A stretch of DNA of 36,999 bases, taken from a virus (Duplodnaviria; Heunggongvirae; Uroviricota; Caudoviricetes). A program made the translations under genes and the position numbers. The DNA is taken from the IMG/VR virus record IMGVR_UViG_2874920711_000003. The stretch is one strand, 5' to 3'. This document shows positions 14,288 to 17,205 of this stretch, piece after piece; position 1 is the stretch's first letter; each line of letters begins with the position of its first letter. The notes below the pieces were generated by a model. It was not told the origin of the DNA. It was given only the letters and a program-made list of their open reading frames with translations, and searched no databases.

Positions 14288-14572
14288 CAGTGAGTGACCT
14301 CTTCAAAGGTACAGTTAAAATCGGTATACATGGCATTATCCGAAATACTCCACTCCCTGCAGACAACCCGGACGATTCTGTTGTGTTTTGGCGGACGCCA
14401 CAAAAAAGCACGTATCCCGGCATGACGGGATAAAAAACTGTCCAGCGCAGCACGGGAATATTCATCTGTGACACGAAACACCGGTTTAAACGTTTTCAGA
14501 TCCGCATTCAGACCACCAGCCCGTCGCTGTGAGGTGTACTGGCAATAGCGGACACTACCATTTGTTCTTTTT

Positions 14573-15391
14573 TTAAGCAGCCATCTGATGATATTTCTCC
14601 CTGAAGGCTGCCGGGGAGATATTCCCCAGACGAGAGTGACGACGCTGACGATTGTAGAAAATCTCAATGTATTCCCGTATTACTGAGATGGCTTCATCCC
14701 GGTTATTAAAACGATAGTGGCTCAGGCTCTCATTTTTCAGCGTTCCCCAGAAGCTTTCCATCGGAGCGTTGTCGTAACAGTTACCTTTACGCGACATTGA
14801 TGTTTTCAGACCAGACTGCTCCTGTATGACCCGGTAATCGTATGCGCAGTACTGTGAACCTCGATCAGAGTGGTGGATTAGCCCGGCAGGTGGGCGCTGG
14901 CTCCTGAGCGCCATAAACAGGGCTTTACCTGTCAGCTCTTTTGTCATGCGCTCTCCCATGGCGTAGCCGACAATTTCGCACGTATAAACATCTTTGATGC
15001 CAGCGAGGTACAACCATCCCTCCTGTGTGGCAACATACGTCAGGTCCGCCACCCAGACCTGATTTGGTGCTGTAGGAGCGAACGTCTGGTTCAACAGATT
15101 TGGCGCAACTGGCAGATTGTGGTTCGGGTTCGTAGTCGCTCTGAACTTGCGTTTCTGCTTACAGCGTAGCCTTAGCTCCTTACGAAGACGTGCCAGTCGG
15201 TCACGACCAACGATGATGCCATTCTCTGCCAGCTCCGTCTGGAGCCGCCGGGTTCCATATGTTTCGCGAGTGCGGATATGTGCCACCTTAATCTCCAGTT
15301 TTAGCCGCTCATCACTTTGTTTTCTGTCTGAGGGTTCATGCTGTACCCGGTTGTAATAACCGCTCCTGGATACACCAAATACCTGACACAT
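14573..15391 (-). CDS. IS3-family OrfB transposase (DDE integrase-like)
   Basis: 272-aa ORF MCQVFGVSRSGYYN...HSDRGSQY...YDNAPMESFWGTLK..., rve-type catalytic domain. Confidence 0.85.
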   Translation of the reverse strand: MCQVFGVSRSGYYNRVQHEPSDRKQSDERLKLEIKVAHIRTRETYGTRRLQTELAENGIIVGRDRLARLRKELRLRCKQKRKFRATTNPNHNLPVAPNLLNQTFAPTAPNQVWVADLTYVATQEGWLYLAGIKDVYTCEIVGYAMGERMTKELTGKALFMALRSQRPPAGLIHHSDRGSQYCAYDYRVIQEQSGLKTSMSRKGNCYDNAPMESFWGTLKNESLSHYRFNNRDEAISVIREYIEIFYNRQRRHSRLGNISPAAFREKYHQMAA

Positions 15392-15468
15392 CGCTTCAAT
15401 GGGAAATTGTTGTCGCCATTGTTCGATTAACGCGTATTTTTCAGCGACTCCTGTGCAAAATACGCTGT

Positions 15469-16688
15469 TGTAGATTCAATCTGTCAATGCAACACCCCTT
15501 TCAATTATCTCTTTCGGTGTTTTGAACTTCAGTGTCTTTCTCGGTCTGTTGTTTAGCTGAGCAGCAACCAGATCTAGTTCATGTTGAGTATATTGGGCAA
15601 GACATGTCTTTTTAGGAAAGTACTGCCGAATTAGCCCATTTGTGTTCTCATTTGTTCCCCGCTGCCAAGGACTCTGAGGATCGCAGAAGTAAACTTTAAC
15701 GCCGGTGCTGACAGTAAATTCTAGATGTCTGGCCAGTTCCATTCCTCTGTCCCATGTCAGTGATTTTCTGAGTTCTGACGGTAAACTCAGGAATTTGTCG
15801 GTAAGAGCCTGATTTACTGAGACAGAATCTTTGCCCCTGAGTCTAAGGATGATCGTATAACGTGATTTTCGGTCTACAAGTGTGGCTATATGAGAGTTTT
15901 TTGTACCTGAGACTAAATCGCCCTCCCAATGCCCAGAGAGCGTCTGTTATCGATATTTCGGGAACGTTCGTGAATTGGTGTTCCGTTCACTATGTTAATC
16001 GTACCTCTTTCGCCTTTGCGGGTATGACGCCTGCCATGGCGAAGGCTATGCGACCGTCGCAGATGCTGTATATTCAGGTGGTGTAGCGCTTCACGGCTAC
16101 GAAAGTACAGCGTTTTATAAATTGTCTCAGGTGATATTCGCAGCGTTTTTTGACGTGGTTTTGTTCGCCTTAACCATCCTGATATTTGCTCTGGAGACCA
16201 TTTCATCTCCAGCTTTTCCAGAACAAGCTTTCGCAATGGTAAATTTTGATCCAGTAAGCACGGTTTTGGCCTTTTCGCCATTCTGTTGGCTCGGTTATTA
16301 GCATCAACAGCTTTGTAATAGCGTCTGCCCCGATTACGCTGAACTTCACGTGAGATCGTCGAAGGACTGCGATTCAGCGCAGTAGCTATCGCACGAATGC
16401 TCATTTTGGCTGACAAACCAGCTCGTATCTCCTCGCGCTCAGACAGTGTCAGGTGAGCTACAGCCCGCTTACGCTCATGGGGTTTTATGCCGCCAGTATC
16501 CCTTAACATAGTGAAGATCGTTCCGGGTTTTGAACCCAGGATATTCGCTATTTCACTGAAGCCTGTTCCGTTCTTCCATAGTTCAAAAACAGAGGCTTTT
16601 TCCTCTGCTGTAAATGTTCGTCTCATTCAAAAAACCTCCGCAACCCCATGTTTTCACATAACTGTTGCGTTGACCAATTGAATCTACA
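15469..16688 (-). mobile_element. IS30 (about 1.22 kb) nested inside the IS3-family element, with 2-bp target duplication GT
   Basis: Ends TGTAGATTCAAT(C)TGTCAATGCAAC at 15469 and, reverse-complemented, TGTAGATTCAATTGGTCAACGCAAC at 16688. GT at 15467..15468 and 16689..16690. Confidence 0.9.
15476..16626 (-). CDS. insI: IS30 transposase, frame-broken
   Basis: N-terminal MRRTFTAEEKASVFELWKNGTGFSEIANILG... and C-terminal ...VYFCDPQSPWQRGTNENTNGLIRQYFPKK...ERGVALTD match IS30 transposase as recalled; middle section is in another frame. Confidence 0.85.
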
Positions 16689-16951
16689 GTTGCTTTTTTT
16701 AATATATCTCGCTCAAGGCGAGCTTCATTTAACGCCTTACGCAGTTGCAGAATTTCAGATTCCAGTTCAGCCACCGTGCGGGAGCCAGGAGTACCGAGCC
16801 CTTTTCTGGCGGCGGTAACCCATTGTCCTAAAGTGCCTTCAGGAAGGGATAATCGGGAAGCGCCTTCACTGATCGAAAGTTGATTTTCAAGAACCGTTCT
16901 GACAGCTTCGGCTTTGAACTCTTTAGAGTAACGTTGGGTTTTTCTGCTCAT
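16689..16951 (-). CDS. IS3-family OrfA (HTH), 5' part; last 12 codons displaced to 15432..15468 by the IS30 insertion
   Basis: MSRKTQRYSKEFKAEAVRTV...ILKKAT then IS30. Removing IS30 and one copy of the duplicated GT restores ...LKKATAYFAQESLKNTR*. Confidence 0.8.
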
Positions 16952-17205
16952 TATTAGCTCCTTCTGATGCCATTCTATTTCAGGAAGGAGTGTCCGTTAA
17001 ACTCAGGCTACCTCACTGTTCATATCCGTCACCGAACTTTACCGTAATAACAGATGGCTTTCGTGTCGTCTCCATCCCCTCGCGGGGATCCAGTTAAAAA
17101 CTTCAGGCTCAGGCACTGTATAATCCTCCGTCCCGACGTGATGACTGCATAATTGACACAACCCTGCTGTCGTTCAGATCCACCAGCCCCTGGCTGACTG
17201 CGTAT

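Follow-up and report, generated by a model that had tools for sequence, protein, structure and literature searches.

An IS600::IS30 nest in the tail gene M of a Shigella-type lambdoid prophage and the recurrence of IS30 at the IS600 frameshift window

The minor tail gene M of the prophage in the window (the whole 36,999-nucleotide stretch of DNA that was analysed) was interrupted by an IS3-family element that itself carried a copy of IS30. The locus raises the question of how one insertion sequence came to lie within another, and whether the point at which IS30 entered was a matter of chance. IS600, IS30 and their nested arrangement are already known. The question bears on IS annotation, in which IS3-family copies hit by IS30 get called pseudogenes, on models of IS copy-number control, in which one IS family inactivates another, and, through target preference, on the rearrangements that occur between such sites.

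Structure of the nest in gene M

The interrupted locus contained the following features.

14287-14529, minus strand: 3′ part of gene M, QRRAGGLNADLKTF...EEVTH*, 80 codons plus stop (translation)
14527-14529: left CTG copy of the 3-bp IS600 target duplication (sequence; uninterrupted locus with a single CTG)
14530-17015, minus strand: IS600 (IS3 family), 1264 bp once IS30 and one GT are taken out
14530-15468, minus strand: orfB-side part of IS600, 939 bp, closing with the GT (15467-15468) duplicated by IS30
14530-14556: right terminal repeat of IS600 (inverted-repeat analysis)
14573-15391, minus strand: IS600 orfB, 272 aa
15432-15443 and 15454-15465: hairpin-forming repeat of IS600 (inverted repeat and predicted fold)
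15467-15468: GT, one copy of the 2-bp IS30 target duplication (sequence)
15469-16688, minus strand: IS30, 1220 bp (1221 bp in every other copy compared)
15469-15494: IRR end of IS30
15476-15742, minus strand: IS30 transposase, piece 2, 88 aa (NCBIfam IS30 family match)
15913-16626, minus strand: IS30 transposase, piece 1, 237 aa (NCBIfam IS30 family match)
16583-16951, minus strand: truncated orfA running into IS30, a 122-aa ORF
16663-16688: IRL end of IS30
16689-16690: GT, second copy of the IS30 target duplication, AC on the IS600 coding strand (sequence)
16689-17015, minus strand: orfA-side part of IS600, 327 bp, duplicated GT included
16694-16700, minus strand: A7 slippery run of IS600
16951, minus strand: start of IS600 orfA
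16989-17015: left terminal repeat of IS600
17016-17018: right CTG copy of the IS600 target duplication (sequence)
17019-17116, minus strand: 5′ part of gene M, encoding MPEPEVFNWIPARG/METTRKPSVITVKFGDGYE (translation, alignments)

Excision of IS30 together with one GT in silico gave an intact 1264-bp IS600, and with 14530-17018 excised the locus aligned without a break to the intact M gene of E. coli SCU-115, in which the junction has a single CTG. The nested insertion in M that the original prediction had described was thus real, with base-exact coordinates, and M was split between ...FGDGYEQ and RRAGGLNADLKTF..., as had been read. The first codon of the 3′ part, the glutamine codon CAG (14527-14529), was itself one copy of the IS600 target duplication. 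The likely start of M was the GTG at 17116-17114, with GGAGGA just before it. The restored M, a lambda gpM-like minor tail protein of 113 aa, matched Pfam PF05939 (Phage_min_tail) with 108.3 bits over 107 of the 108 model positions and was nearly identical to the intact M of the E. coli SCU-115 prophage; its neighbours were L (PF05100) directly downstream and tape-measure fragments upstream. The split M explains why the window prophage cannot build tails, and in this respect the locus is one more, routine case of IS-driven decay of a Shigella prophage.

The outer element began with TGAGGTGTACTGG and ended with ...CAGGCTACCTCA, as read from the sequence and checked by script. Its terminal inverted repeats of 28 nt were imperfect (71% complementary) and began with TGAGGT. 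The orfB side matched the NCBIfam IS3 family transposase with 330.9 bits (cut-off 160) as well as Pfam rve and HTH_21, and the orfA side matched Pfam HTH_Tnp_1 with 72.8 bits. In the restored element, a 100-aa orfA ending in ...RDILKKATAYFAQESLKNTR* was followed by an overlapping orfB in the -1 frame, and the overlap contained A AAA AAA. The restored element was 99.7% identical to uninterrupted copies named IS600 in RefSeq, and composite copies with 99.6-99.7% identity carried the RefSeq label “IS3-like element IS600 family transposase”. Its length, ends, orfA/orfB arrangement with the slippery heptamer and 3-bp duplication were all those of IS600, for which the duplications at other copies were GCG, GAC, GGT, CAC and CTAC.

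The inner element had IS30-type ends (TGTAGATTCAAT.../...ATTGAATCTACA) with terminal inverted repeats of ~26 bp and a 2-bp duplication. It lay 5 nt (GCAAC) past the A7 slippery run and before orfB, a distance first given as a few nucleotides. The IS600/IS30 junctions were alike in 10 other complete composites, in each of which the junction was read base by base. The names of near-identical RefSeq copies and the NCBIfam and Pfam matches agreed with the family assignments first made for both elements, the outer one being IS600, and a base-level search for the ends and duplications, on which the claim depended, found all of them present.

Order of insertion and fate of IS600

The nest very probably arose by two successive transpositions into a lambdoid prophage of the HK97-like kind, carried by a genome of the Shigella dysenteriae type. 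In the first step, IS600 would have entered M after codon 34, duplicating CTG and inactivating the gene. In the second, IS30 would have entered the resident IS600 at its programmed -1 frameshift window, past the A7 slippery run but ahead of the predicted hairpin, duplicating GT. Insertions within another IS would persist and accumulate because the host pays nothing for them. At a Rac-like recE site, IS600 alone was present in 2 genomes and IS600::IS30, with the same flanks, in ~30 among the matches listed; judged from these flanks, entry of IS30 into IS600 in situ is demonstrated at this locus, which is another locus than M. No strain was found with IS600 alone in M, so the order of IS600 first and IS30 second is inferred there.

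It is unlikely, by comparison, that a 2.49-kb IS600::IS30 unit reached M preassembled, mobilized through its intact IS600 ends by OrfAB that another IS600 copy in the cell provided in trans. At unrelated loci there were indeed complete composites, each flanked by an IS600-type duplication of its own (GGT and CTAC within a single genome, GAC on a plasmid of S. dysenteriae E670/74, and GCG in E. coli), but repeated IS30 hits on resident IS600 copies predict the same pattern and are likely given the hot-spot data below, so that these units would fit trans mobilization or repeated hits alike. Such a transfer would also agree with the two fully intact composites from GCA_000815495.1, which were identical and had the same IS30 orientation, and with the uninterrupted IS600 copies encoding an identical OrfB in other genomes. 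Against it, the recE site, as the single comparable locus, showed IS600 both alone and with IS30 between the same flanks, and the IS600 backbone at M had 7 differences from the sister-strain plasmid composite while the IS30 was identical, so that this composite was not the donor. IS3-family transposases such as that of IS911 are reported to prefer acting in cis, which also counts against a preassembled unit. SNP typing gave 3 private changes in the M-locus IS600 and none in its IS30, a difference that was not significant, and variants were common to stand-alone and composite IS600 copies.

The second of the two successive insertions placed IS30 between the A7 slippery run on one side and orfB and the predicted hairpin on the other. 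With the run cut off from orfB in this way, the window IS600 would be unable to make the OrfAB fusion by -1 frameshifting and would be dead in cis. As read from the sequence, the frame reached by a -1 slip met a stop 21 codons into IS30. The interrupted element would yield only a C-terminally altered OrfA and free OrfB. The stability of the predicted, putatively frameshift-stimulating hairpin was no better than that of shuffled sequence (z = -0.84). The proposal that OrfAB synthesis is abolished thus appears to hold, whereas the accompanying proposal that the outer element is frozen in place is not supported in that form: the IS600 ends were intact and could still respond to OrfAB from another copy, and complete units with their own duplications were found at other loci.

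Recurrence of IS30 at the frameshift window

Composites of the same two elements, with the same junction, GT duplication and orientation as in the window, were found in E. coli (NZ_CP148275.1, 2331779-2334266; pO157-like plasmid NZ_CP027356.1). They were 99.6-99.7% identical to the window nest over 2487 bp, and their RefSeq annotation is that of a pseudogene for IS600 together with a transposase for IS30. Unlike the window nest, the E. coli composites lay at a Rac-like recE, at a yjiT-like site, in tssC and on plasmids, differed at 7 positions of the IS600 backbone, and carried an IS30 of 1221 bp with an intact 383-aa transposase. Deeper nests were present in E. coli O157:H7 TR01 (IS600::IS30::ISEc8) and in contig AAMJ02000045.1 (IS600::IS30::DDE_Tnp_1 element); they had the same IS600/IS30 junction but differed in that a third element interrupted IS30, which was reversed in the O157:H7 copy.

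Among 5426 complete E. coli genomes, the identical IS600/IS30 junction was present in 794 and IS30 in the opposite orientation, at the same dinucleotide and with the same GT duplication, in 619. In IS911, an IS30 lay 5 nt after the slippery run in both orientations (1038 and 795 genomes). These genome counts exceed the number of independent events, many copies being inherited by descent; at least some six or seven separate events can be demonstrated. The same IS600 site was occupied by IS30H, which was 10% divergent, with 123 differences spread across the element, and a third IS3-family element, annotated merely as “IS3 family transposase”, also hosted IS30 at the equivalent position. In a mixed sample of 171 IS30 left ends from genomes, metagenomes and viral contigs, 120 (70%) adjoined one of three IS3-family frameshift windows. 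For the set of 5426 complete E. coli genomes, the share of IS30 left ends lying in an IS3-family frameshift window was at least 45%.

IS30 favours hot spots that conform to a symmetric consensus of 24 bp (PMC9333248, PMC12445084). The IS600 window, TATTAAAAAAAGCA-AC-AGCGTATTTTGCAC, matched the symmetric target consensus TnAAAAAnGCn-NN-nGCnTTTTTnA better than any other stretch of IS600; this consensus is empirical, drawn from few sites and not the published 24-bp one (Olasz 1998). By hand count, the left arm of the site agreed with the half-site TnAAAAAnGCn at 8 of 8 positions and the right arm at 6 of 8, and by this empirical consensus the site had the nearly palindromic form of an IS30 hot spot. 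A weight matrix trained only on 8 non-IS target sites ranked the real site first among 1235 IS600 positions and 12th among 35748 window positions. IS30 would be drawn to the IS600 window because it offers the best consensus match in the element, just as it would be to the corresponding windows of IS911 and at least one further IS3-family element. By these comparisons, the nest is a recurrent hot-spot insertion and no chance event, and the arrangement is an ordinary and widespread one.

Although composites at different E. coli loci were only 1-6 bases apart and many genomes clearly had the same locus by descent, it is highly improbable that IS30 entered by chance a single time, with no target preference, and that all IS600::IS30 composites stem from this event through inheritance, horizontal transfer and recombination. 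Such a history would have to account for both orientations at one dinucleotide with intact GT duplications, for the divergent IS30H at the same site, for the occupation of the homologous positions in IS911 and the third element in both orientations, and for the fact that a matrix trained on unrelated targets scored this site highest within IS600.

Beyond recurrent insertion at a hot spot, we tentatively suggest that the preferred natural target of IS30 may be the programmed -1 frameshift window of IS3-family elements, that is, the ILKKA codons with the slippery run, TATTAAAAAA(A/G)GCn-NN. If this were true, most IS30 copies in Enterobacteriaceae would live within, and disable, IS600, IS911 and related elements. 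The result would be a systematic IS-on-IS parasitism in which IS30 gained safe havens and the IS3-family transposases were silenced, and it would also seed rearrangements, to which the hybrid flanks point. Mention of the preference in the literature searched was anecdotal only (IS30D in IS911 “at the same position”, PMC13463583), and the 1998 paper on target specificity may already describe it.

Two known systems resemble the IS600 site. In E. coli K-12, IS30A and IS30D each interrupt IS911 (PMC9333248, PMC5379014, PMC13463583). These IS911::IS30 nests (IS30A, 5.8-6.1 min; IS30D, KpLE2) occupied the homologous position of a sister element within the IS3 family, with IS30 lying 5 nt after the A6G slippery motif, straight after the ILKKA codons, and with an AC/GT duplication. 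They differed from the window nest in that the host element was IS911 and these K-12 IS911 copies were partly deleted. Natural hot spots of IS30 such as LHS of lambda (33244-33498) are nearly palindromic and give a 2-bp duplication (PMC9333248). At ~33290 of lambda, where the insertion base was taken from plasmid coordinates with a register of +/-1 nt, AATAAAAGTGGC-GA-TAGTGAATTTAG showed an A-run and G/C half-site like that of the IS600 window. Unlike the IS600 site, LHS is coding DNA of lambda, overlapping kil just upstream of cIII, and is no insertion sequence.

Accuracy of the assembly and the IS30 reading frame

A mis-joining of repeated IS copies during assembly is hardly conceivable, even with the systematic single-base errors of the window assembly in C/G runs, since both target duplications were exact, excision in silico repaired both interrupted units, the independent complete assembly CP027027.1 (S. 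dysenteriae E670/74) had the identical nest with identical duplications, and six draft contigs with an identical L gene broke off at the same M junction, 67 bp into IS600. The view that both duplications are intact and that these are insertions, not assembly joins, was thus borne out.

The window differed from the sister genome by 15 indels, all of them 1-bp window deletions in C/G runs, and by substitutions confined to one patch in J. This pattern suggests that the window assembly under-calls C/G homopolymers. The frame of the 5′ part of M was broken at 17080-17083, where a G5 run in intact M and in the sister genome read G4. In IS30, the single 383-aa frame appeared as 237 + 88 aa owing to one C missing from a C4 run near 15928-15931. 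This frame split and the hot-spot recurrence are additions to the original prediction. Save for that one base, the IS600::IS30 unit was that of CP027027.1, in which a 383-aa transposase is called. Because all 15 indels were window deletions in C/G runs, the IS30 frame break is probably an assembly error, and this IS30 copy is likely intact. A genuine IS30 pseudogene was considered and thought unlikely on the same 15 of 15 indels. Several frames that read as pseudogenes in the window, among them those of the IS30 transposase, of M and of the tape-measure gene H, are probably intact in the actual genome.

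The nested insertion in gene M

The minor tail gene M was interrupted by an IS600 element of the IS3 family (14530-17015), and IS600 was itself interrupted by IS30 (15469-16688). At the left IS600 junction, located between H and L (14527-14530), ...CCCGTCG CTG was followed by TGAGGTGTACTGG..., and at the right junction (17015-17019) ...CAGGCTACCTCA was followed by CTG TTCATATCC...; the two ends formed imperfect inverted repeats of 28 nt. IS30 began with TGTAGATTCAATCTGTCAATGC... (from 15469), ended with ...GACCAATTGAATCTACA (to 16688) and had GT on either side (15467-15468 and 16689-16690). 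The predicted CTG and GT duplications and terminal inverted repeats were thus all present on base-level inspection. Removal of 14530-17018 in silico gave a gap-free alignment over the junction to the uninterrupted M of a prophage in E. coli SCU-115, which carries a single CTG. Counted from a GTG start, the restored M had 113 aa, and its match to Pfam Phage_min_tail covered 107 of the 108 positions. These results placed IS600 after codon 34, exactly the predicted split between ...FGDGYEQ and RRAGGLNADLKTF.... Removal of 15469-16690 yielded a 1264-bp outer element with a 100-aa orfA (ending ...RDILKKATAYFAQESLKNTR, stop), an A AAA AAA slippery run and an orfB open in the -1 frame from the run. 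Together, the junctions, the duplications and the two excisions confirmed IS30 within an IS3-family element within M.

Both elements could be named. RefSeq stretches 99.6-99.7% identical to the 2.49-kb unit were labelled "IS3-like element IS600 family transposase" (pseudogene) interrupted by "IS30-like element IS30 family transposase", and the restored outer element was 99.7% identical to uninterrupted IS600 copies. OrfB scored 330.9 bits to the NCBIfam IS3 family, OrfA matched HTH_Tnp_1, and both pieces of the IS30 transposase matched the NCBIfam IS30 family. The insertions were real rather than assembly joins, as had been proposed: a second complete genome, CP027027.1, whose plasmid CP027028 is recorded as Shigella dysenteriae E670/74, had an identical nest in M, and its CTG and GT duplications agreed with those of the window. 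Six draft contigs encoding an identical L protein all ended 67 bp into IS600 at this junction. Insertion sequences are often nested in one another, both IS600 and IS30 are textbook elements, and the IS600::IS30 nest was annotated by RefSeq in hundreds of genomes; the nest is an ordinary feature, known in kind.

The M start annotated as ATG in SCU-115 was ACG in the window (17140-17142), and in both sequences the true start is more likely a GTG that lies five codons further downstream (17116-17114) and follows a GGAGGA. A 126-aa ORF (14287-14667) began within the IS600 end and extended beyond it into the 3' part of M; such IS600-M fusions were labelled as Phage_min_tail proteins of about 100 aa by gene callers in draft genomes, which is an annotation trap.

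Transposase synthesis and mobility of the composite

IS30 had been placed a few nucleotides downstream of the A7 run and before orfB, and the distance proved to be 5 nt (GCAAC). In the 0 frame, orfA continued into the left end of IS30 to give a 122-aa ORF, and in the -1 frame after slippage a stop was reached 21 codons into IS30. Because of these two outcomes, and given the established behaviour of the IS3 family, an OrfAB fusion with the catalytic domain should not be able to come from this copy, in agreement with the predicted loss of OrfAB synthesis; that the M-locus IS600 would be dead in cis is well supported. An inverted repeat directly beyond the IS30 site (15432-15443 / 15454-15465) was predicted to form a 9-bp-plus hairpin in the restored RNA, which had no extra stability relative to shuffled sequence (z = -0.84).

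The further claim that the outer element was frozen in place was overstated. The terminal repeats were unaltered relative to active-looking copies, the earliest difference from other copies lying at 14597, and composites with clean IS600-type duplications were found at other loci. The exact OrfB of the M-locus copy was also encoded by uninterrupted IS600 in the related genomes CP026823.1 and CP026877.1, by complete composites in one draft genome, each bounded by a duplication of its own (GGT and CTAC), by a composite in which IS30 was reversed (GTA), by a triple nest, and by two hybrids (IS911-IS30-IS600, and IS30 with an inverted IS600 orfB half on each side) that record rearrangements between IS30-occupied sites. 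Composites with clean duplications at new loci are the picture expected from mobilisation in trans, but repeated IS30 hits on resident IS600 would yield the same picture; since the sequences fit both equally, immobilisation of IS600 in M is unproven. At a Rac-like locus, the same flanks held uninterrupted IS600 in 2 genomes and the composite in about 30 among the matches listed, which shows that IS30 went into a resident IS600 there. For the M locus, entry of IS30 into a resident IS600 in situ is favoured with good confidence, and arrival of a ready-made composite seems rather improbable.

Mismatched IS30 flanks were seen at L023 (E. coli ECDA1023) and at L035 and L037 (GCA_000815495.1), comprising the IS600 orfA side with IS911, IS911-IS30-IS600 orfB, and two inverted IS600 orfB halves; they record inversions or deletions between IS30 copies in different IS3-family elements. 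Triple nests consisted of ISEc8 in IS30 in IS600 (L018; E. coli O157:H7 TR01, NZ_CP033605.1) and of a DDE_Tnp_1 element within the IS30 of IS600::IS30 (L039; AAMJ02000045.1).

IS30 at the frameshift window of IS3-family elements

The whole unit with the identical junction was present in 794 of 5426 complete E. coli genomes, a count that, like the other composite counts, includes many inherited copies and so does not give the number of events. Direct inspection of E. coli genomes revealed at least four loci (a Rac-like recE site with a GCG duplication, a pO157-like plasmid, tssC and a yjiT-like gene), and a further copy of the unit, flanked by a GAC duplication, lay on the S. dysenteriae E670/74 plasmid. 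A synthetic junction in which this IS600 base was followed by the opposite end of IS30 matched 619 genomes at 100% over 160 nt, and strain FORC_069 carried a complete opposite-orientation composite with the same GT on both sides. IS30H, which differs from IS30 at 123 positions distributed end to end, was lodged at the same IS600 base and agreed with the IS30 of the window in its orientation and its flanking GT.

The flanks outside IS600 were taken from IS30 copies of species-representative genomes. IS30 lay immediately past the ILKKA codons in IS911 (GAAATATTAAAAAAGGCT-AC) and in a third IS3-family element (GACATATTAAAAAAAGCC-GC), in a register identical to that of the IS600 junction (GATATATTAAAAAAAGCA-AC). 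For IS911::IS30, one orientation of the junction occurred in 1038 genomes and the opposite one in 795. In total, IS30 left ends were located at 7249 places in 3540 genomes, at least 3246 (45%) of them adjoining the frameshift window of IS600 or IS911. In a wider sample of genomes, metagenome contigs and viral contigs, 120 of 171 left ends (70%) adjoined one of the three frameshift windows, each of them occupied in both orientations. The two orientations in three elements, with IS30H in addition, indicate that homologous positions were hit independently at least seven times. Twenty-four distinct complete sites gave the symmetric half-site TnAAAAAnGCn beside the duplicated dinucleotide, the same form as the "24-bp symmetric consensus" that PMC12445084 and PMC9333248 report for IS30 hot spots with reference to Olasz 1998. 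When a weight matrix was trained on just 8 sites outside insertion sequences, the real site came out at the top of the 1235 positions in IS600 (6.3 bits, against 3.7 for the runner-up; mean -16.8, sd 7.4) and 12th of 35748 in the window. A modest but solid generalisation is that, in IS600, IS911 and their relatives, the frameshift window is a preferred site of IS30 insertion.

K-12 IS30A and IS30D interrupt IS911 according to the Fig. 3 legend of PMC9333248 and to PMC5379014, and for an unrelated strain a 2026 paper (PMC13463583) described IS911 interrupted by IS30 "at the same position (at 334 bp)". In the searchable literature, apart from the primary 1998 paper, no statement was found that names the frameshift window of the IS3 family itself as a hot spot for IS30; the preference deserves brief follow-up.

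Base accuracy and the surrounding prophage

The prophage in the window was lambdoid and HK97-like and lay on the minus strand, where terminase, portal, capsid, tape-measure H, M, L, K, I and J were encoded. Across the 12.7 kb compared, the window was 100% identical to CP026824.1. Over 12.4 kb compared with CP027027.1, all 15 indels were 1-bp deletions in the window within C or G runs of 4-5, and the seven substitutions were all clustered in J.

Positions of the 1-bp deletions in the window relative to CP027027.1
8513, 8700, 8707, 8810, 8873, 12620, 12832, 15931
17083, 17267, 17604, 18409, 19038, 19053, 19289

This pattern is probably systematic homopolymer under-calling, a consensus error of long-read assembly. 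The deletions split H into four ORFs and also broke M (a G5 run shortened to G4 at 17080-17083), the nearby IS4, genes of the K-I-J region and the IS30 transposase (a C4 run shortened to C3 near 15928-15931, which left 237 + 88 aa in place of 383). Because the indels ran in one direction and substitutions were confined to J, the IS30 frameshift is probably an artefact, and if homopolymers were under-called, many apparent pseudogenes in the window may be false.

In the tail-fibre gene J (10200-10291), 239 bp of CP027027.1 were absent from the window; the two alignments overlapped by 16 nt (10200-10215), followed by the seven clustered substitutions (10205-10291), a pattern that resembles a deletion mediated by repeats or a patch of recombination. 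Immediately downstream of J, pieces of an IS4-type transposase (Nterm_IS4 and DDE_Tnp_1; about 7639-8958) marked a second insertion sequence of the tail region, with its frame broken at homopolymer positions only. The following features are accessory content typical of lambdoid prophages.

Accessory features in the window
2214-2412, minus strand, IS009 RNA family match
32223-32412, minus strand, STnc100 sRNA
33068-33144, minus strand, tRNA-Arg(tct)
33244-33319, minus strand, tRNA-Met(cat)
36561-36731, minus strand, sok antitoxin RNA
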